Assembly (NCBI GenBank): GCA_002328405.1
Contig: DCXM01000006.1
Coordinates: forward strand, 104,913-168,912
Reading direction: 5' to 3'
DNA from: Proteobacteria bacterium UBA2136
GTDB taxonomy: Bacteria > Pseudomonadota > Alphaproteobacteria > UBA2136
DNA length: 64,000 nucleotides
The notes under the pieces: generated by a model
The model's input: the letters and a program-made list of their open reading frames with translations, nothing else
Database searches by the model: none
Told to the model about the DNA's origin: nothing
In this document: piece by piece, positions 5,581 through 23,763 of the stretch
How the letters are laid out: each line of letters starts with the position of its first letter
Position numbering within the stretch: position 1 is the first letter of the stretch
Translations under genes and position numbers: made by a program

Positions 5581-6939
5581 TTAACGCCCCATGGGAGGGA
5601 ACCCACCACCACCGCCAAACATTGAACCCAAGCCGCCCATGCCACCACTTTGCATTTTTTTCATCATTTTTTGCATTTGTTGGTGAGACTTAATAAGCTT
5701 GTTAACAGCGCTCACTTCCAAACCACAACCCTTTGCAATGCGCTGACGGCGCTTGGCATTTAAAATAGAAGGGTTTTTACGTTCCTGCTTGGTCATGGAA
5801 TCAATAATGGCAATTTGATGGACAACCATTTTGTCATCTACATTGGCTTGGTCCAGCTGTTTCGCCATTTTAGACACTCCAGGGATCAACTTCATCATCC
5901 CCTTTAAACTGCCCATGCGTTGCATCATTTTCATCTGCTTTTTCATGTCGTTCAAATCAAACTGGCCGGACAGCATTTTTTCCATCATGCCCATCATATC
6001 TTCTTCAGATGTCGCTTCTTGCACCTTTTCCACCAAGCTGACCACGTCGCCCATGCCAAGAATACGGTTGGCCATGCTTTCAGGGCGGAACACTTCCAAG
6101 GCGCCAAGGCCTTCACCCATACCCAAAAACTTAATAGGGCAACCCGTCATTTCACGCATGGAAAGGGCAGCACCGCCACGACCATCACCATCAATTCGGG
6201 TAAGGACGTTACCGGTAATGCCAATACGTTCGTGGAATGTTTTGGCAACATTCACAGCGACTTGACCTGTTAAACTGTCCACCACCAATAATGTTTCAAC
6301 TGGGTTCACAAGTTGCTTGACCGTTTCAAGCTCAGCCATCAGATCTTCGTCAATTTCTAAGCGACCTGCTGTATCCAAAAACAGCACATCATAACCGCCT
6401 GTTTTGGCAGCCTTGAGCGCACGCTTTGCAATTTCAACAGGTTTTTGACCCTCAACAATCTCCAAACCGTCCACGCCTGTGCGCTCGGCCAATGTTTGCA
6501 ATTGCTGTTGAGCAGCAGGGCGATAAATATCTAAAGAAGCGAGCAGAACCTTCTTCTTTTCTTTTTCTTTAAGGCGCTTGGCAATTTTACCAGTGGTTGT
6601 GGTTTTACCCGAGCCCTGTAAGCCAACCATCATCACCACGGCTGGTGGTTGCGTGGCAAGGTTTAAACCTTCACCTTCGCCTAAAATTTCAACCAACTTG
6701 TCATTGACAATTTTAACAACCTGTTCGCCCGGCTTGATAGATTTTAAAACCTTTTCGCCAACCGCATCTTCTTTTACTTTTTTGATCAACGTTTTGATCA
6801 CCGGCAGGGCGACATCCGCCTCCAGCAGTGCGATGCGAATTTCACGCATTGCGGCGTCAATATCCTTTTCGGACAGCACACCACGACCCGTTAGCTTTTT
6901 AAAAACACCATCTAAGCGACCTGAAAGTTGATCAAACAT
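5581..6939 (-). CDS. ffh: signal recognition particle protein Ffh
   Basis: 452 aa; SRP54 N and G domains (GLQGSGKTTT, DTAGR) and a Met-rich M-domain (…MMKKMQSGGMGG…). Confidence 0.95.
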   Translation of the reverse strand: MFDQLSGRLDGVFKKLTGRGVLSEKDIDAAMREIRIALLEADVALPVIKTLIKKVKEDAVGEKVLKSIKPGEQVVKIVNDKLVEILGEGEGLNLATQPPAVVMMVGLQGSGKTTTTGKIAKRLKEKEKKKVLLASLDIYRPAAQQQLQTLAERTGVDGLEIVEGQKPVEIAKRALKAAKTGGYDVLFLDTAGRLEIDEDLMAELETVKQLVNPVETLLVVDSLTGQVAVNVAKTFHERIGITGNVLTRIDGDGRGGAALSMREMTGCPIKFLGMGEGLGALEVFRPESMANRILGMGDVVSLVEKVQEATSEEDMMGMMEKMLSGQFDLNDMKKQMKMMQRMGSLKGMMKLIPGVSKMAKQLDQANVDDKMVVHQIAIIDSMTKQERKNPSILNAKRRQRIAKGCGLEVSAVNKLIKSHQQMQKMMKKMQSGGMGGLGSMFGGGGGFPPMGR

Positions 6940-7071
6940 TGACTCAAAAACCCTTTAATTTCTATAACAAATGAGAAAATACAACAAACAGCCTTGAAAT
7001 GCAAAGGCATTCACATTACATAATAACCAACATGTGGGGATTGGCCCTACACATAACCTAGGCGTTTAATC

Positions 7072-7404
7072 ATGAAAAAACTGATAACAGCTGTTTTGGC
7101 AACCACCTTTGTTTTTTGCGCTTCAGCAAATGCTGATGAAATTAAAATAAACGACAGGGATGCTATTATACTTGAAAAAATATTTAAACAAACAGTTCGC
7201 CCAAAAAGCCACTTCTTTACAATCCTGTACTTTGATACGGGACGCATATGCGAAAAAGCACGCCGACACGAGGCGGGCATTCACTGCTCCAACTGGGACA
7301 GCAATCCCATACAAGCCAAGTTTTTTGTAGAAAAATGTGAAGCATATGCCAAAGATAAGAGATTGTGCACTTATTACCAGAATGCGGCGCCCAAACTAAA
7401 TTAA
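7072..7404 (+). CDS. hypothetical small secreted Cys-containing protein
   Basis: Signal peptide MKKLITAVLATTFVFCASANA; 4 Cys in the mature part; terminator follows. Confidence 0.5.
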   Translation: MKKLITAVLATTFVFCASANADEIKINDRDAIILEKIFKQTVRPKSHFFTILYFDTGRICEKARRHEAGIHCSNWDSNPIQAKFFVEKCEAYAKDKRLCTYYQNAAPKLN

Positions 7405-7423
7405 GTTTTAAAATAGCGACAAG

Positions 7424-7454
7424 AAAAACCCCTCATCAGAGGGGTTTATTTTTG
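7424..7454 (+). terminator. rho-independent terminator
   Basis: aaaaacccctcatcagaggggtttattttt. Confidence 0.5.
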
Positions 7455-7557
7455 AACGGTCAAGCACTGTTAACGCATCACCAAAACAAGTGACATTGTG
7501 TGAAATACTTTATTTTTCGATAACGACTGCTACACAACAACGTAGCCGCTTACATGT

Positions 7558-8754
7558 TTACGCCTCTACCTCACTAAAGAAGGTTTCAAAATGAACCATC
7601 CCCTTTTCAAGGGTGTGTAGGTCACAAGCGTAGGAAATTCTTAAAGCGCCGGGGTGGCCAAAAGCACTGCCAGGCACACAGGCTACACCGTGACTCTCCA
7701 ATAAAAGTTCACACAAACGCACATCATCGGTGATGGTTTGCCCTTTGTACTTTTTACCAATAAAATGCGACACGTCAGGAAACGCATAAAAAGCCCCTTT
7801 TGGGAATGGGCAAACCAGCCCTTCAATGCTTTCTAAGCTATCCATCACGGCGTCACGCTTTTGTTTGAATTCAGCACACCTTTCTTCAATGAACGTTTGG
7901 TCACCTGTTAAAGCCGCCGCCGCCGCCTTCTGGGAAACGTGGGGAATGTTCATAAAAGTGTTGGTCGCCACAGAAACCATCATTTTAATAATATCCTTCG
8001 GGGCGGCCACAAAACCCACACGCCAGCCGGGCATACCATAAGACTTGGAAACCGACTGCACAATCACCATTCGGTCACGCAGCTCTGGCTCCGCAGTTAA
8101 AAGGTGGTGAAACTCTTCGCCATCAAAAATAATCTTGTCATACAAATCGTCGGAAATAATCCAAACATCATGCTTTTTAAGAACCACGGCCAACGCGGCA
8201 ATTTCCGCTTTGGTGTAAACCATACCTGTGGGGTTTGAAGGGTTATTAAACAAAAAAATGCGTGTTTTGGGGGTAATGGCCGCTTCTAGCTGTTCTGGTG
8301 TCAGCTTATAGCCCTGCTCACTGCCACATTCAATGGGCACTGGCACAGCGTCCGCCATTTGAACGGTTTGAATGTAATTACTCCAAAAAGGGGCGGGGAA
8401 CAACACTTCATCGCCGGCATTGCACAACACCTGGCACAAACTGGTCAAAGCATTTTTTGCACCCATGGTGGCACATGTTTCATCCAAGCTGTAAGTGAAC
8501 CCTTGCGACTTTAAAAGGTTTAAGAATGCCTCGCGCAGTTCGTCGCTCCCCGCAGAGGACAAATAAGCGCCACTGTCTTCGTTTACGGCTTTTGTGGCCG
8601 CTTCATAAACGTGTTGAGGTGGTAAAAAACCAGGCACACCGATTGAGAAGTTAAAAATCTCACGACCTTCTTTGGCTAAGGCTTTTGCCTTCATGTTGAT
8701 GGCAACAATGGGGCTGCCTTCTGTGTGGGCGTATTTGTCACTCACTTGTGGCAT
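7558..8754 (-). CDS. pyridoxal-phosphate-dependent aminotransferase, class I (aspartate/aromatic aminotransferase-like)
   Basis: 398 aa; fold-type I aminotransferase with the PLP-lysine motif SKSYGMPGWRVG and an NPSNPTG loop. Confidence 0.85.
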   Translation of the reverse strand: MPQVSDKYAHTEGSPIVAINMKAKALAKEGREIFNFSIGVPGFLPPQHVYEAATKAVNEDSGAYLSSAGSDELREAFLNLLKSQGFTYSLDETCATMGAKNALTSLCQVLCNAGDEVLFPAPFWSNYIQTVQMADAVPVPIECGSEQGYKLTPEQLEAAITPKTRIFLFNNPSNPTGMVYTKAEIAALAVVLKKHDVWIISDDLYDKIIFDGEEFHHLLTAEPELRDRMVIVQSVSKSYGMPGWRVGFVAAPKDIIKMMVSVATNTFMNIPHVSQKAAAAALTGDQTFIEERCAEFKQKRDAVMDSLESIEGLVCPFPKGAFYAFPDVSHFIGKKYKGQTITDDVRLCELLLESHGVACVPGSAFGHPGALRISYACDLHTLEKGMVHFETFFSEVEA

Positions 8755-10538: not shown

Positions 10539-10544
10539 CAAACA

Positions 10545-10576
10545 AAAGCCCTCTTTATGAGGGCTTTTTTATTTTT
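10545..10576. terminator. bidirectional rho-independent terminator
   Basis: aaaagccctctttatgagggcttttttattttt. Confidence 0.5.
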
Positions 10577-11282
10577 GTTCTGTGTAGAACAAGCCCACAA
10601 CAGGCCCCATATTTTGCTTTTGTATCACCACCGCAGCTTCCAACCCTTCGGGTCTAAGTGGTAATGTCAGGGACAGCTCTTTTTGACCATCCCACACCTT
10701 TAACAGTTCCTTAGAGCGGACAATGTTCACCGAGTGTAAAACACGCCCTTGATTCTCACCCTTGGTGACGGATGTGACAGCTTCAGGTCTGTAAGACACA
10801 TACCAAATATTGGCGACACCGCCCATGTCAAAGGCAGGCATTTGAACATATTCTCGGCCGTTTTTTTGGCTGTAAAAAATTGGGACATTCACTTGATTAT
10901 TTCGTGCCGATGACGCCAACATTTTAACCCGCCAGCCCCATGAGGCAGTGGTTTCTGATTGACCGTCCACCACCACTTGTGGCGTGTACAGGCTGCTGTT
11001 TTCAAACTTTTCCATATAATGCACTTGCCGTTGGCTGAAAGCACCTTGGGCAAAAGGGTCTTGCCAGCCCATTTTATCCCAATAATCCACATGGAAGCTT
11101 AAGGCAAAAAAATCGTCACGCTCATTTAATTGGCGGATAACCTTCTCACCCGCAGGGCAAGATCTGCAACCTTGTGAGGTAAAAAGCTCTAACAGCACAG
11201 GCCTTGCCTGCGCAAACAAGTCGTTCACACAAAAAAGCAAAACCAAGAAGGCAAGGGTTAGTTTTTGCCACATTGCACACAC
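10569..11282 (-). CDS. DUF1223 thioredoxin-like protein (secreted, CxxC)
   Basis: Signal peptide, then ELFTSQGCRSCPAGE, which matches the DUF1223 hallmark (ELFTSQGCSSCP). Overlaps the DoxX stop, so it is likely co-transcribed with the MNIO cluster. Confidence 0.65.
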   Translation of the reverse strand: MCAMWQKLTLAFLVLLFCVNDLFAQARPVLLELFTSQGCRSCPAGEKVIRQLNERDDFFALSFHVDYWDKMGWQDPFAQGAFSQRQVHYMEKFENSSLYTPQVVVDGQSETTASWGWRVKMLASSARNNQVNVPIFYSQKNGREYVQMPAFDMGGVANIWYVSYRPEAVTSVTKGENQGRVLHSVNIVRSKELLKVWDGQKELSLTLPLRPEGLEAAVVIQKQNMGPVVGLFYTEQK

Positions 11283-11836
11283 ACCTTGTTAAATTGACGC
11301 CTCACCCAGCTATCAAGCGACAAACAGCCCGAACCACGGCTGACCACCACCATTAACAGCAGCATCCACAAATAGTGTAAGTCATGTGCTTGGTATGTCA
11401 AATGCATCACCAAGGTCATAATCAGCAAACCAAAGGCCGCAATGCGCCCACCCAAGCCAACAAACAGCATCCAAGCAAAAACAATTTCAAAAAACGTGGC
11501 ACTTAACGCTGCAAATTCAGGTGAAAGATAAGGCACATTGTATTCATATTCAAACAACATATAAGCCGTATCCGTCACTTGATAAGGCAGAGGGATAAGA
11601 GGGAACTGCACACCCAAAAAGCTGACCGTTTCAGGCAAGCCAAACAATCCTTCACCTGTCACCTTGGTGTCAGCCGACCTTAAGAAAATTAAACCCATCC
11701 AAAAGCGTATCACCAACAAATTTACTGGCTCCACCACCCGTTCTAAAAAAATAAACTTACATTGCACCAACTGGCACAACTTTCCCCAACAACCGCATTT
11801 TTTCATAGTTTGATTTTGTTCATTGTTCATGGTCAT
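11258..11836 (-). CDS. DoxX family membrane protein (bufferin-cluster associated)
   Basis: Four predicted TM helices with DoxX-like topology. Overlaps the DUF2063 gene stop; same position as DoxX in bufferin operons. Confidence 0.7.
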   Translation of the reverse strand: MTMNNEQNQTMKKCGCWGKLCQLVQCKFIFLERVVEPVNLLVIRFWMGLIFLRSADTKVTGEGLFGLPETVSFLGVQFPLIPLPYQVTDTAYMLFEYEYNVPYLSPEFAALSATFFEIVFAWMLFVGLGGRIAAFGLLIMTLVMHLTYQAHDLHYLWMLLLMVVVSRGSGCLSLDSWVRRQFNKVCVQCGKN

Positions 11837-12581
11837 CTCTCCTCACAATCAATTGATGTTGCAATGCCAGCGTTAAGGCTTGCTCTAGCGTATCTCCGCC
11901 ATCTTCTTCAGCAATGTCTCTTAAAGTTTTGCCATCAAATAGCGCTTGCATTGCACCGTACACAGCTTTTGACAGCCCCTGAACCTGACAGTCGTAGGAT
12001 TCATCTCGCCATATCAAGGCATATTCATTATGAGCCAAATCAATATTTTCGACATCAAAACCACATTGCGATTGAATGTTATTATAAAGTGAAACAGCTG
12101 CACCATTAAAAGCCATTAAACAGGCCCTATCCACTGCTTTAAAGCGTAAATTTTCCATATCATCTTCGGTTATATGAACCAATGACAGACCCGTTAAAGA
12201 CATGTCATTTTCAGCGTGTTCGCATTGGTGCACCGCCCATTCCAACTTTGCAACATCATATAAAAATGTGTAATTCTGCGCAGAGGGGTGGTTTTGCAAA
12301 AACTCAGGGAATTTTTCACCATATTCAAACAAGCAACCCGATGTCGGTGGATACGCTTTAATATACTCTTCCGCAATGTAGCGAAAATAGGCCAGATCCA
12401 CCAATTCCGCTGTGATAGGGTATGTTGTGTGCAACGCTTTTTTTAAGCTGACAAATATATTGTTTTGATAAATGGCCAGCCGCTCAACCATTTGACCACT
12501 GACAATATCATGACTTGGTAAGCTTGCACCTTCTTGTTTTAAAAAGTGCTGTTGTAAAGTCTGCTGAAGGTTATGCAACAT
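11820..12581 (-). CDS. DUF2063 domain protein, partner of the MNIO enzyme (BufC-like)
   Basis: 253 aa; N-terminal motif …LAIYQNNIFVSLKKAL… (the YRNNV-type motif of DUF2063). Start overlaps the DUF692 gene stop by 11 nt. Confidence 0.75.
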   Translation of the reverse strand: MLHNLQQTLQQHFLKQEGASLPSHDIVSGQMVERLAIYQNNIFVSLKKALHTTYPITAELVDLAYFRYIAEEYIKAYPPTSGCLFEYGEKFPEFLQNHPSAQNYTFLYDVAKLEWAVHQCEHAENDMSLTGLSLVHITEDDMENLRFKAVDRACLMAFNGAAVSLYNNIQSQCGFDVENIDLAHNEYALIWRDESYDCQVQGLSKAVYGAMQALFDGKTLRDIAEEDGGDTLEQALTLALQHQLIVRRDDHEQ

Positions 12582-13449
12582 GTTGAGGCCTTACTTTTTG
12601 TTGAACAGTCATCGCCTTTTCCATTTCCCCTATCAGTACCGAAAGCGCTGGAATCTGACTGTCCCACTCCACCAAAGTGGCTGGTCGCCTGTCTGTGCTT
12701 TTTAAAAACAATTCGTACAACTGCCAAACATCATCTGCCACTTGAGCACCATGACTATCCACTTTCACCACCTGACCAGAGGCAAGGGTTTGCAATTCAT
12801 GCCCCGCAAGGTGCACCTCCTCAACCGCATCAAACGGCATGGCGCGTAATTGATCCGTCGCATCAAGGCCCAAATTTTCCGCCGTGACATAAACATTGTT
12901 CATATCCAACAGTAAACCACAACCTGTTTTTTCCACCATTTGGCTTAAAAACTCACCTTCTGGTTGCTGACCCTTCAAATTAAAGCCAACGTAAACAGAA
13001 GGGTTTTCCATCAAAATCTTCCTGCCCAAAAATTGTTGAACCATGTCAATATGCTGGCACAGTCTTTCCAGCGCTTCTCGGGTATAAGGCAGTGGCAGAA
13101 GGTCATTGAGATGCATACCGTCCACCCCTGACCATGACACATGTTCACTGACCAACGACGGTTGATATTGATCGACAATTTCTTTAAGGCGTTTTAGGTG
13201 TTTAAGGTCTGGCCTTGTGTGTGAACCTAGGGACAAACCAACACCGTGAAAACTTAGAGGATAATGTTCAGCCAATGCCTGCAAATAGGCATGCGCCTTA
13301 CCGCCTAATGCAAAAAAATTTTCACTGTGTACTTCCAAAAACCCAATTTCAGGCTTTTGTTCTAGAATTTCTTGATAATGCGGTGCACGCAATCCCACAC
13401 CTACATGAGCTGTGAGGTCTTGTGCACCATTTGGTCGGATGTCGTTCAT
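12571..13449 (-). CDS. multinuclear non-heme iron-dependent oxidative enzyme, MNIO/DUF692 (BufB-like)
   Basis: 292 aa; hallmark DUF692 motifs VGVGLRAPHY and FLEVHSENFF, TIM-barrel-like length. Abuts the precursor gene stop (13450). Confidence 0.85.
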   Translation of the reverse strand: MNDIRPNGAQDLTAHVGVGLRAPHYQEILEQKPEIGFLEVHSENFFALGGKAHAYLQALAEHYPLSFHGVGLSLGSHTRPDLKHLKRLKEIVDQYQPSLVSEHVSWSGVDGMHLNDLLPLPYTREALERLCQHIDMVQQFLGRKILMENPSVYVGFNLKGQQPEGEFLSQMVEKTGCGLLLDMNNVYVTAENLGLDATDQLRAMPFDAVEEVHLAGHELQTLASGQVVKVDSHGAQVADDVWQLYELFLKSTDRRPATLVEWDSQIPALSVLIGEMEKAMTVQQKVRPQHVA

Positions 13450-13713
13450 TTAAGACTCGGACGATTCCAAACTGCCGTTTACCAGCTTATCGCAAAGCCC
13501 TTTTGGAACGTAAACCCATTCAGTGGTGTCGCCATCTTCTTTTGACATACCTGCGCATGAGTGTACCGATGTACCACAGTCGTTTTGACCGGCTTTAGCA
13601 ACACCATAACATTTTTCATGTTCTTTTTTCTTCGCTTCAGCTTCACTGGCAGCGCCCGTGGTTGCAAGCGCACCTGTTAGCGCCAAGAAAGCCAATTTCG
13701 TTGTATTGTTCAT
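13450..13713 (-). CDS. DUF2282 precursor peptide (bufferin-like RiPP precursor, BufA-like)
   Basis: 87 aa. Sec signal peptide ([25 protein letters not shown]), then core [42 protein letters not shown] with 4 Cys in the DUF2282 pattern CYGVxxAGxNDC…HxCAG…WxxVPKGxC. Confidence 0.8.
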
Positions 13714-13921
13714 TGTTCAAGTTCCTTATTATTGAATGCAAGCAGTATTATTGCTTTTGTTATTTCTACATAGATATTCGCACCTATTTTCAGAATGGTT
13801 ACATTGTGAATGATTTTTGTGAGAAAAAAAACAGAAAGTTCATTTTTAAAGACAAAACAGCTTTGTATGGCAACTTTCTATACATAAGACATATAAACAA
13901 TTGACTGGCGACACAACAGCC

Positions 13922-15442
13922 TTACCAAGCGTCAAACTTGCCTTTAAATTCAGGGTCAGCGTAGTAGCGGATTTTTTCTGCTAAGACCGGACGACAACCC
14001 TGGACAAAAATAACCTGTGCGTCGTTTGGCATCCGCATCACTTCATCAGGGGTCATGAGAGGTCTCGACGTTTCGGAAACGTTGCTGCTGACATTGCCAC
14101 CAAACCACTGCCCCTTCTCCTTCGAGGTCCCTTCACCTGCCACACGGACCGTGGTTGTACCCATCATGTCAGACAAAATTTTGGCGGTGTCAAAGTCATT
14201 GGTACCAAAAGCCATCCGAACACTACAGTTGGCAATTAAGGACGCCCACTTGGGATAATCTTCCTTAATTTGTGATAAATCCTGAATAAACATCCAAAGG
14301 GAAATGCCATAACCAGCCAAATAACCGACACCTGATTCGATGTTTTTCATGTAACCAAGGGCTGGAAACTCATCAATAATAAACAAAGTTGGGTCTTTTG
14401 GTTTTTCTTGGGTACGGGTCAGCGTGGCAATAGTGATACCCATCATCAAACGCACTACAGGCTTGTATACATCTAAATACTCAGGTGGAATAATCACATA
14501 AAAAGATGTCGGCTCTTTTTTAATGTCTTCTAATTTAAAGTCACTGCGTGATGTGATGGAGGTTAGCCTTGGGCTGTCCCAAACAGCGGTTTGCGACTTT
14601 GCGGTGGAAAGAACCGAAGCCAATACCTTAGGCTCGGTCGCCGCTACTGAGTTAGCAATCCTTTGGATAATTTGGTTTTTACTGCGCTGCATGTCTTTAA
14701 TGGTCAGCTGAAAGTCTTTTTGGTCCTGCATAATCAGGTAACGCACCTCGCCCAAGTTGCGCAGCGCCGCAGGGCTTTCATTGGCCACATAAAGAATAAG
14801 GCCTGTGATCACGGTTTTTGCTTCATTGGTCCAAAACTCATCGCCACCACCGGGGACAATAATCATATCCGCAATTAAGGCGGCATCATCCAACTCATCA
14901 CTGGTGTTAATGCGAATAAAATCAATGGGGTTAAAGCAACCGCTACCTTCCATAAACGGTGCAAACGTGATTACTTTTGAAAATTGTGCACGGTGACGAC
15001 CAGAAACGGCGTAGTTTTCACCTTTAATGTCATTCACAACCACAGATCCTGGGTGGTCCAACAAGTTTGGAATAACGTGACCAACACCCTTACCACTACG
15101 TGTCGGTGCAAACGTGATTAAGTGACCAGGACTGCGAAAGCGCACAAATTTATTATCAAACTTGCCCAGCATAAAGCCATTTTCACGGACAAGATCCGCT
15201 TCTTTAAGATCCTTCATGGTTGCAAAGTCAGCAGAACCGTGGGCATGACTTGCCTTGCCTTGCATTTTCTTAAGTTCGCCCACTTGCTTTTTATAGCCTG
15301 CTTTGGGGCGATTTTTAAAATAAATATAAGCCATCGCAACAACAGCGGCAACAACCGCTGGAATCATCAACCCTTCCGGTACAACAAAAGGAATGGCCGC
15401 AGCCACCACAAGAGCTGTATACAAAAAAGTTTTTTGAGACAT
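13922..15442 (-). CDS. virD4: type IV secretion system coupling protein, VirD4/TraG family
   Basis: 506 aa; two N-terminal TM helices, Walker A APTRSGKGVGHVIPNLL (VirD4 type), Walker B LFIIDEFPALG. No other T4SS genes in the window. Confidence 0.75.
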   Translation of the reverse strand: MSQKTFLYTALVVAAAIPFVVPEGLMIPAVVAAVVAMAYIYFKNRPKAGYKKQVGELKKMQGKASHAHGSADFATMKDLKEADLVRENGFMLGKFDNKFVRFRSPGHLITFAPTRSGKGVGHVIPNLLDHPGSVVVNDIKGENYAVSGRHRAQFSKVITFAPFMEGSGCFNPIDFIRINTSDELDDAALIADMIIVPGGGDEFWTNEAKTVITGLILYVANESPAALRNLGEVRYLIMQDQKDFQLTIKDMQRSKNQIIQRIANSVAATEPKVLASVLSTAKSQTAVWDSPRLTSITSRSDFKLEDIKKEPTSFYVIIPPEYLDVYKPVVRLMMGITIATLTRTQEKPKDPTLFIIDEFPALGYMKNIESGVGYLAGYGISLWMFIQDLSQIKEDYPKWASLIANCSVRMAFGTNDFDTAKILSDMMGTTTVRVAGEGTSKEKGQWFGGNVSSNVSETSRPLMTPDEVMRMPNDAQVIFVQGCRPVLAEKIRYYADPEFKGKFDAW

Positions 15443-22031: not shown

Positions 22032-22991
22032 TTATGCCTCAAGCAGCCCTTCAACATAACGGATGGTATCCAAAGCCGCCATACAGCCCAAACCAGCTGC
22101 TGTCACCGCTTGGCGGTAAATTGGATCAGCCACGTCACCAGCAGCAAAAACACCATCCACATTCGTGTTGACTGTGCCCTTTTCAACTTCTAGATATCCA
22201 TATTCGTCCATATCCAACTGACCTTTAAATAAGTCAGTGTTTGGCTTGTGACCAATGGCAATGAAAACACCGTGACAAGGCACTTCTTCATATGCCCCAT
22301 CTTCGGTGTTTTGAAGTTTCACAGATGTTACACCACCCAGCGGGCCTTCTGTGCCTTGAATTTCAGCCACAACCGAGTTCCACTTTACTTGAATATTTTC
22401 GGTTTTTTCAATGCGGTTGCGCAGCACAACTTCACCACGGAAAGCATCACGGCGGTGCACCACCGTAACCGATTTACAAATGGCACTGAGGTACAAAGCC
22501 TCTTCCATCGCGGTGTTACCACCACCCACAACGACTACATCTTGACCGCGGAAAAACGCACCATCGCAAGTGGCACAAGCGCTCACACCTTTACCACTGA
22601 ACTTTTGTTCGCTTTCCAAGCCCAACCATTTGGCAGAAGCACCTGTTGCCACAATCAGTACATCACAGGTGTAAGTCGTGCCACTGTCACCTTTTAAAAC
22701 ATGTGGCTTTTGCTTCAAGTCCACTTCCACAATGGTGTCATTCACCATTTCTGTGCCGCAGTTTTCCGCCTGTTTGTTAAATTGATCCATCAACCAAGGG
22801 CCTTCAACAACGTTTGCAAAGCCAGGATAGTTTTCCACTTCATGGGTAATGGTCATCTGACCACCTGGCTGTAAACCATGAATAAGCATGGGCTTTAAGT
22901 TTGCGCGTGCTGTGTAAATAGCAGCGGTTGAACCGGCAGGTCCACTGCCTAAAATGATAACTTTGCGGTGAATGTTATTGGACATTGTCAT
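22032..22991 (-). CDS. trxB: thioredoxin-disulfide reductase
   Basis: 319 aa; FAD motif GSGPAGSTAAIY, redox-active CATCDG, NADPH motif VVGGGNTAMEEA. Confidence 0.9.
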   Translation of the reverse strand: MTMSNNIHRKVIILGSGPAGSTAAIYTARANLKPMLIHGLQPGGQMTITHEVENYPGFANVVEGPWLMDQFNKQAENCGTEMVNDTIVEVDLKQKPHVLKGDSGTTYTCDVLIVATGASAKWLGLESEQKFSGKGVSACATCDGAFFRGQDVVVVGGGNTAMEEALYLSAICKSVTVVHRRDAFRGEVVLRNRIEKTENIQVKWNSVVAEIQGTEGPLGGVTSVKLQNTEDGAYEEVPCHGVFIAIGHKPNTDLFKGQLDMDEYGYLEVEKGTVNTNVDGVFAAGDVADPIYRQAVTAAGLGCMAALDTIRYVEGLLEA

Positions 22992-23169: not shown

Positions 23170-23763
23170 ATGACATTTATGGTTGGGCAAAAATTCCCAA
23201 CTGCTACCACACCAGCAGTTATGGAAAATGGCGAAATTAACAACGACTTTAGCGTAGCCGAGCATGGCAAAGGCTCATACACAGTTGTATTCTTTTACCC
23301 ACTTGACTTTACATTTGTATGCCCAACAGAACTTGTGGCATTCAACAAAGCAATGAGCCGTTTTGAAGCACTGGGTTGCAAAGTTGTTGCCGCATCTGTG
23401 GACAGCGTTTTCTCTCACGCTGCATGGCGCCGCACACCACTGGCAGACGGTGGCATTGAAGAAGTGAACTACCCAATGCTTTCAGACATTGAGCGTAAGC
23501 TTTCAAACGAGCTTGGCATCTTGGCTGATGGCGGTGTGACTTTCCGTGCATCTTACCTAATTGACAAAGAAGGTACAGTTCGCCACATGGTTGTGAACGA
23601 CCTACCACTTGGCCGCAGCGTTGAAGAAATGTTGCGCATGGTGGAAGCTTTAGACTTCCACGAAAAACACGGTGAAGTTTGCCCAGCAAACTGGAAACAA
23701 GGCGAAGAAGGTATGCAAGCCAACCGTGAAAGCACAAGCGCTTACTTGTCTAAAACAGCATAA
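23170..23763 (+). CDS. peroxiredoxin (typical 2-Cys Prx, AhpC/TSA family)
   Basis: 197 aa; peroxidatic Cys motif FTFVCPTE and resolving Cys GEVCPA near the C-terminus; AAGGAG RBS. Confidence 0.9.
   Translation: MTFMVGQKFPTATTPAVMENGEINNDFSVAEHGKGSYTVVFFYPLDFTFVCPTELVAFNKAMSRFEALGCKVVAASVDSVFSHAAWRRTPLADGGIEEVNYPMLSDIERKLSNELGILADGGVTFRASYLIDKEGTVRHMVVNDLPLGRSVEEMLRMVEALDFHEKHGEVCPANWKQGEEGMQANRESTSAYLSKTA

Follow-up and report, generated by a model that had tools for sequence, protein, structure and literature searches.

A bufferin 1-type precursor gene and its predicted maturation operon in the marine alphaproteobacterium UBA2136

The bufA gene, its operon, and its promoter

A 64,000-nucleotide stretch of contig DCXM01000006.1 from Proteobacteria bacterium UBA2136 (Alphaproteobacteria), referred to here as the window, contains on its minus strand an ATG-to-stop open reading frame (ORF) at positions 13450..13713, including the TAA stop codon, which encodes a protein of 87 amino acids. 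On the basis of the reading frame, a match to the Pfam family PF10048, and its homologues, this ORF is assigned to the BufA1/DUF2282 bufferin precursors and is called bufA. By analogy with the characterised Buf1 system, it is very likely that bufA encodes the precursor of a bufferin 1-type metallophore, a peptide synthesized ribosomally and modified post-translationally (RiPP), and that the product follows the Buf1 pathway. The evidence presented here for this assignment comprises the sequence, the family membership, the operon, the alignment of the cysteines, the predicted fold, and the promoter motif. An initial annotation of the ORF had proposed a bufferin precursor, and this proposal is supported by the PF10048 match of 85.1 bits, the context of bufB, bufC, and doxX, the mapping of the cysteines, and the secondary-structure layout of an AlphaFold2 model.

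The match to PF10048 (DUF2282), which was renamed BufA1 in newer Pfam releases, has an E-value of 3.2e-24 (cutoff 22.4 bits) and spans residues 33-82 of BufA, corresponding to positions 2-53 of the 53 profile positions. In database searches, 1229 proteins matched BufA at E <= 1e-3, and PF10048 is present in all those listed. Among 121 aligned homologues, no variation is seen at the four cysteines or at G37, K40, N44, A54, D60, and G72, and the spacing of the cysteines in the window BufA (11/7/21) is the mode of the family, found in 165 of 209 members. A second Pfam match, to PHD_2, was rejected as an artefact of Cys/His composition (19 bits, cutoff 28). The identical protein is found on 48 contigs, Tara Oceans assemblies and NCBI metagenome-assembled genomes (MAGs) among them; its NCBI entry reads "hypothetical protein [Magnetococcales bacterium]" (MAF31967.1), and it also occurs in a "Pseudomonadota bacterium" MAG. 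The ORF belongs to the known bufferin family BufA1/DUF2282, as an ordinary and uncharacterised member. Bufferins have already been described as the largest of the RiPP families that are modified by multinuclear non-haem iron oxidases (MNIOs), with thousands of clusters, and the family, characterised in 2024-2026, is already represented in Pfam and NCBI names.

Two kinds of variants were observed among the DUF2282 homologues. Three of them (P0011, P0015, and P0017) are 99-100 amino acids long and have six cysteines, with an insert that duplicates the CysIII loop (…HSCAGKTHECATKPHSCAG…), and may carry extra thiooxazole sites. In two others (P0028 and P0056), the signal peptide ends in a lipobox-like LTAC or LAGC and the cysteines have the Buf1-like spacing of 11/8/21; the two proteins may be lipoprotein-anchored bufferins.

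bufA opens a five-gene operon on the minus strand, bufA-bufB-bufC-doxX-DUF1223, in which the first four genes are in the canonical buf1ABCD order. The bufB gene (12571..13449), whose ATG abuts the bufA stop codon, encodes an MNIO (DUF692) maturase of 292 amino acids (Pfam MbnB_TglH_ChrH, 332 bits), which scores 351 bits against the NCBIfam model MNIO_BufB, above the equivalog cutoff of 310, and matches PDB entry 3BWW at E = 8e-38. All positions with at least 95% conservation among 51 diverse BufB homologues are retained in the window BufB, including H24, H68, H103, E148, D182, N185, H213, D231, H233, and E261; judged from MbnB structures, this pattern probably corresponds to the MNIO iron ligands. 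The bufC gene (11820..12581) encodes a DUF2063 partner protein of 253 amino acids (Pfam DUF2063, now HvfC_N, 72.5 bits, cutoff 27.2), which matches NCBIfam HvfC weakly and has no sequence match in PDB. It is followed by a bufD-like gene for a DoxX membrane protein of 190-192 amino acids (11258..11836; Pfam DoxX, 41.6 bits, cutoff 23.6) and by a gene for a DUF1223 protein of 234 amino acids, counted from its ATG (10569..11273; Pfam DUF1223, 180 bits). bufC overlaps bufB by 11 nucleotides, doxX overlaps bufC, and the DUF1223 gene overlaps doxX by 16 nucleotides. Since all junctions of the buf genes either abut or overlap, the genes are considered to be translationally coupled. A ribosome-binding site, AAGGAA, was read from the minus-strand sequence at 13722..13727, 8 nucleotides 5' of the bufA ATG, and directly 3' of the DUF1223 stop codon there is a 10-bp GC-containing hairpin (10544..10568, minus strand), which likely marks the end of the operon and is accompanied by a weak T-run on that strand.

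The arrangement of the locus was compared with that of 80 GTDB buf loci listed from a scan of genome contigs, which come from many Pseudomonadota and from other phyla and do not include the species of the window. Most of these loci have the order bufA-bufB-bufC-doxX, with DoxX likewise positioned. Furthermore, the wider synteny, in which the buf operon is located between a type IV secretion coupling protein on one side and RmuC, an aminotransferase, and Ffh on the other, is kept in relatives with BufA identities as low as 65%. Among other buf loci, tandem bufA-like ORFs were found upstream of a single bufB in nine cases (L073 at 6122-7997, L013, L024, L033, L043, L046, L055, L076, and L079); L073, from a Thiotrichaceae MAG, has up to five bufA-like ORFs, one of which is without CysII and CysIII. 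Four further loci (L028, L039, L063, and L081) have a BufB-matching ORF of approximately 1650 nucleotides and no separate bufC ORF, which suggests BufB-BufC fusion proteins; in these loci the fusion-sized ORF is preceded by a divergent Cys-rich ORF (…GGKNTCAV…GISCQG…AICAG…), which is present besides a normal bufA.

The gene immediately upstream of the buf operon in the window (13922-15442, minus strand) encodes the VirD4/TraG-like type IV secretion coupling protein (Pfam T4SS-DNA_transf, 326 bits), and its adjacency to buf is kept in all relatives examined. There were no Pfam matches to type IV secretion components among the neighbours of this gene within 8 kb, and between it and a gene for a PIF1-type helicase no gene gave a Pfam match. 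At a distance of approximately 9 kb from the operon, a gene for a thioredoxin-reductase-like pyridine nucleotide-disulfide oxidoreductase (22032-22991, minus strand) is divergent to a gene for a 1-Cys/AhpC-type peroxiredoxin (23170-23763, plus strand); these are probably unrelated housekeeping redox genes. An Rfam scan of the whole 64-kb window gave no match.

Upstream of bufA, an exact match to the promoter consensus GTAACC-N16-CGAA, of the sigmaF type among the extracytoplasmic function (ECF) sigma factors, was identified on the minus strand at 13777..13802 (GTAACCATTCTGAAAATAGGTGCGAA), with its 3' end 64 nucleotides upstream of the bufA ATG. No other exact match occurs in the 64-kb window, for which 0.07 matches are expected by chance. 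The same sequence was experimentally defined as the sigmaF-binding sequence of the buf operons of C. crescentus (PMC3511200). In three relatives of the window locus (L005, L088, and L089), the upstream regions have otherwise diverged and the TGTAAC and CGAA boxes stand out as conserved islands with constant spacing, and a relaxed form of the motif is located upstream of bufA in 7 of the 80 listed loci, versus approximately 0.004 expected per 450 nucleotides. A scan of the bufA upstream region for sigma-70 promoters found no convincing site. By analogy with C. crescentus, a sigmaF-type ECF sigma factor whose gene lies elsewhere in the genome probably drives transcription of the operon. Every base of the Caulobacter sigmaF consensus is kept in this distant marine genome, which is AT-rich and in which no such sigma factor was found adjoining the operon among the ORFs scanned.

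Cysteines, signal peptide, and predicted fold of BufA

BufA has four cysteines in total, at positions 35 (HEKCYGV), 46 (QNDCGTS), 53 (VHSCAGM), and 74 (KGLCDKL), and their codons, checked by hand, are located at 13609-13611 (CysI), 13576-13578 (CysII), 13555-13557 (CysIII), and 13492-13494 (CysIV); the protein ends in NGSLESSES. The initial annotation, which did not state the minus strand, had listed the four contexts EKC-YG, NDC-G, HSC-AG, and GLC-D and the SLESSES end, all of which were found in the translation.

In the core peptide of Buf1 from C. vibrioides, CysI is Cys12, which comes after Glu10 and before Tyr13, CysII is Cys23 (Asp22-Cys-Lys24), CysIII is Cys31 (Ser30-Cys-Ala32), and CysIV is Cys52, followed by Val53, with Trp44 as a further anchor; CysII and CysIII each lose 4.03 Da and become 5-thiooxazoles, while CysI and CysIV are unmodified and linked by a disulfide (PMC11626156; bioRxiv 10.64898/2025.12.15.693703). 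The 5-thiooxazole was assigned independently in a sister family (PMC13097082). Buf1 binds copper 1:1 in a 2N/2S site, BufB and BufC are jointly necessary and sufficient for its post-translational modifications, and its signal peptide is cleaved at the predicted site (PMC11626156).

For the comparison with Buf1, BufA1-type proxies were obtained by a homologue search with a pseudo-query assembled from the published Buf1 anchor residues. One of these proxies (P0154) matches the published anchor residues at 16 of 17 positions, and the subclade from which the proxies come includes proteins named "BufA1 family periplasmic bufferin-type metallophore" by NCBI; no protein with the published mass of the 68-amino-acid core, 6978.35 Da, was among the matches of the pseudo-query search. 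In both MAFFT and BLASTP alignments, the four cysteines of the window BufA fall in the CysI-IV columns of the proxies, with gaps of one residue in the loop between CysII and CysIII and of four residues after the helix. The anchors E10, C12-Y13, D22-C23, S30-C31-A32, W44, and C52 of Buf1 correspond to E33, C35-Y36, D45-C46, S52-C53-A54, W66, and C74 of the window BufA. The cysteine spacings are 11/7/21 in the window BufA versus 11/8/21 in Buf1, and the distance from CysIII to the tryptophan is 13 in both. The initial annotation had taken the central cysteines for the MNIO targets and the outer pair for a disulfide, an assignment that homology to Buf1 supports, and it had named an alignment in which the cysteines did not map to modified positions as the result that would speak against a bufferin. 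Because the window cysteines map to the modified and disulfide-linked positions of Buf1, the alignment does not refute the bufferin reading.

Residues 1-27 (13633..13713, minus strand) are predicted to form a Sec signal peptide, based on inspection of the sequence, conservation among homologues, and low values of the predicted local distance difference test (pLDDT) at residues 1-30. The n-region, MNNTTK, has a single lysine (K6), the next 16 residues (L7-A22) are uncharged, and the c-region reads SEAEA; neither a lipobox cysteine nor a twin-arginine motif was seen when the N-terminus was inspected. The (-3,-1) rule allows three cleavage sites, A22|S23, A25|E26, and A27|K28. Small residues are most conserved at positions 25 and 27, in 72 and 82 of the 121 homologues, respectively, and because A25-x-A27 is conserved in the family alignment, cleavage at AEA|KKK, which gives a 60-residue core, is preferred over SEA|EAK, or is at the least no less likely. 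The predicted core peptide is therefore K28-S87 (13453..13632, minus strand), 60 amino acids, with pLDDT values above 90 at residues ~31-80. The cleavage that the initial annotation placed at SEA|EAK is one of the three allowed and not the favoured one.

The AlphaFold2 model of BufA, built on an alignment of 83 sequences, has one strand at residues 32-36, which includes Cys35 (CysI), a second at 66-70, and a short helix at 74-76 that includes Cys74 (CysIV), all within the region of pLDDT above 90. The published layout of Buf1 consists of strands Thr9-Tyr13 and Trp44-Lys48 and a short helix (PMC11626156), and this BufA1 secondary-structure layout is reproduced in the predicted model. No solved structure in PDB matches the precursor by sequence, and a Foldseek search of the model against PDB returned only noise (best E = 1.7).

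The C-terminal tail, which the initial annotation had called atypical, is only in part unusual. G80-S81-L82 is invariant across both the window and the Caulobacter-type subclades, and because of this invariance the SL belongs to the domain and not to the tail. The distal tail has 6 residues, near the family mode of 5. Its net charge is -2, whereas most tails of the family are neutral or basic and 21 of 204 are at -2 or below. The composition of ESSES is unusual, with a fraction of serine and glutamate of at least 0.8 in only 3 of 204 tails, and the other two belong to the nearest relatives of the window BufA. The tail region is variable and, judging from these comparisons, the composition in the window is typical of its lineage and supports no functional conclusion.

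Proposed pathway and alternative explanations

The chemistry of the modifications, the disulfide, export and cleavage, copper binding, regulation, and the physiological role in the pathway proposed here are taken over from C. vibrioides Buf1. The precursor of 87 amino acids would be synthesized in the cytoplasm, where BufB, together with BufC as a partner resembling a RiPP recognition element, would convert Cys46 and Cys53 to 5-thiooxazoles with the loss of 4 Da each; the predicted loop that connects the two beta strands contains both cysteines. The modified precursor would then be exported through Sec, and signal peptidase I would cut off approximately 27 residues, with AEA|KKK as the most likely site. 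The product of approximately 60 residues would fold in the periplasm into a two-stranded sheet (32-36 and 66-70) plus a short helix, and a Cys35-Cys74 disulfide would clamp the first strand to this helix. One copper ion could be chelated by the two thiooxazoles in a 2N/2S site, and periplasmic copper would thereby be buffered under metal stress.

Several points weigh against this interpretation. The alignment of the cysteines was made to close proxies and to quoted anchors and not to C. vibrioides BufA1 itself, and the position of signal peptide cleavage is ambiguous among the three sites compatible with the (-3,-1) rule. In the subclade of the window, the loop between CysII and CysIII is one residue shorter than in Buf1, the 4-residue segment after the helix is absent, and a nearly invariant histidine, His51 (116 of 121 homologues), is located two residues before CysIII, giving HSCAG versus TSCAG, with Thr/Gly at this position in the Caulobacter type. 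Because of these differences, metal ligation or selectivity could differ from that of Buf1, and the conserved histidine of the HSCAG loop might tune metal selectivity in the window subclade. Furthermore, a Pfam scan of 20 window ORFs of 150-320 amino acids found neither an ECF sigma factor (sigma-70_r2/r4) nor NrsF (DUF1109).

These differences would fit a product that is a genuine MNIO substrate and has another outcome than Buf1, such as an oxazolone-thioamide modification, another set of modified cysteines, or another metal. An oxazolone-thioamide was the first assignment for the related HvfA product (PMC11252979), the window subclade combines HSCAG with a CysII-III spacer of 6 residues versus 7 in Buf1, and Cr and Cd, in addition to Cu, induce the C. 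crescentus operon (PMC3511200). However, for bufferins and for EGKCG peptides three approaches have led to the assignment or re-assignment of the modification as 5-thiooxazole (PMC13097082; bioRxiv 10.64898/2025.12.15.693703), BufB exceeds the BufB equivalog cutoff and stays far short of the MbnB cutoff (75 versus 325), and the residues flanking the cysteines, D-C and S-C-A, are identical to those in Buf1, so we regard such an outcome as unlikely. It is less likely still that BufA is an unmodified Cys-rich protein, small and periplasmic or membrane-anchored, in which the cysteines form two disulfides or metal thiolates while the MNIO acts elsewhere. A signal anchor is in principle a possible reading of the hydrophobic N-terminal stretch, the protein has been labelled "hypothetical" or "uncharacterized membrane protein" by NCBI and JGI, an old Pfam label reads "predicted integral membrane protein", and orphan DUF2282 genes without a neighbouring MNIO exist in some genomes (PMC12452194), as at loci L049, L061, and L062. 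Against this stand the bufA stop codon abutting the bufB start, the A-B-C order in most of the 80 listed loci, the conserved A-x-A cleavage motif, and the findings that the modifications of Buf1 are made by BufB plus BufC and that its cleavage is as predicted (PMC11626156). A decayed or silent locus that makes no functional bufferin is the most improbable of these explanations: nothing specific speaks for it beyond the mmr cluster of Microbulbifer, a related cluster that is unexpressed in laboratory conditions (PMC12538549), whereas the five ORFs are intact, the identical protein is on 48 contigs, synteny is kept down to 65% BufA identity, all conserved residues of BufB are kept, and the promoter motif and ribosome-binding site are present. 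The assignment of the ORF as bufA of a Buf1-type pathway is therefore preferred.

A further feature of the window operon is its fifth gene. The DUF1223 protein, which is predicted to be periplasmic, combines a signal peptide with the CxxC motif of a thioredoxin fold, GCRSCP, in which GC-x-(S/T)-CP is conserved, and matches the thioredoxin-fold structure PDB 2AXO at E = 8e-28, with the motif ELFTSQGCxSCP conserved; DUF1223 has been classed as thioredoxin-like (PMC3091736). It is encoded by the terminal, overlapping gene of the buf operon in all 4 clade members examined, namely the window, L005 (9913-10608), L088 (8009-8725), and L089 (8597-9280), and absent from all 80 other GTDB buf loci listed. 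In L005 (78% BufA identity) and L088 (69%), the DUF1223 gene directly follows bufC and doxX is absent, while the window and L089 have both genes, a distribution that suggests a dispensable or replaceable DoxX in the lineage of the window. The association of DUF1223 with buf was not found in the available parts of the text and supplements of the 2025 MNIO landscape paper (PMC12452194). It is conceivable, though we hold it only as a tentative proposal, that this marine lineage recruited DUF1223 as a dedicated redox partner of its bufferin, which either forms the CysI-CysIV disulfide or reduces a labile S-S bond that can link the thiols of the two thiooxazoles; such a reduction, if it occurs, would keep the metal site competent. 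If this redox partnership is true, it would be the first function for DUF1223 and would also hint at the role of DoxX in ordinary buf operons.

The precursor itself, with its modal cysteine spacing and canonical operon, is of little weight. The practical value of the assignment lies in annotation: the identical protein and its maturase carry the name "hypothetical protein" in Tara Oceans MAGs assigned to Magnetococcales or to "Pseudomonadota bacterium", and these entries can be given the name of a bufferin 1 cluster, from a marine lineage that is abundant and uncultured.

Comparison with known systems

Methanobactin (MbnA/MbnBC) is, like the predicted product of the window, a Cu-binding RiPP with an MNIO acting on cysteines. 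However, its precursor is unrelated and has a leader peptide, its modification is an oxazolone-thioamide, and it is a secreted chalkophore for copper acquisition; the window BufB scores 75 bits against the MbnB model TIGR04159, for which the cutoff is 325. The EGKCG captophorins, which include oxazolin (HvfA), fontiphorin, gonophorin, and bulbicupramide, have an MNIO of the same subfamily with DUF2063, often DoxX, and a Sec signal, carry 5-thiooxazole, and bind Cu. In contrast to them, the window BufA has no EGKCG or K-C-G motif, and its BufB scores 228 bits against the HvfB cutoff of 360. Furthermore, for the window BufA a folded mini-protein and an ordered 1:1 site are predicted, whereas the EGKCG captophorins are repetitive, probably disordered, and multi-site.

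BufA2 (BUF_6/12Cys, NF050166) is Sec-exported, modified by BufB and BufC, and has central thiooxazoles and an outer disulfide, features which by homology would be shared by the window product. The window BufA reaches 29.2 bits against the BufA2 profile over residues 7-62, below the cutoff of 60. It has four cysteines versus six (or twelve) in BufA2 and no Cys-Lys motifs, and BufA2 operons are without DoxX.

The closest known system is the Buf1 precursor BufA1 (CCNA_03363 / CC3254), encoded in buf1ABCD of Caulobacter vibrioides (Leprevost et al. 2024, PMC11626156). In the window BufA, the CysII-III spacer is one residue shorter, HSCAG replaces TSCAG, and CysII is followed by G instead of K; strand 2 reads WVYVP versus WKMVK, the 4-residue segment of the "TPKG" type after the helix is absent, and the last five residues are the acidic ESSES versus the basic TPKA. 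No sigF-nrsF pair adjoins the operon among the 20 ORFs scanned, and the operon has the extra DUF1223 gene. Nevertheless, the window core is approximately 40-50% identical to the BufA1-type proxies, and the two systems have in common PF10048, a length of 80-120 amino acids, a Sec signal, which is predicted in the window BufA, and four cysteines, all of which the alignment to BufA1-type proxies places in the CysI-IV columns. The contexts E-x-CysI-Y, D-CysII, and S-CysIII-A, the I-II and III-IV spacings of 11 and 21, and the CysIII-to-Trp distance of 13 are likewise shared, as are the predicted fold, the gene order A-MNIO-DUF2063-DoxX, the GTAACC-N16-CGAA motif, and the C-terminal G-S-L.

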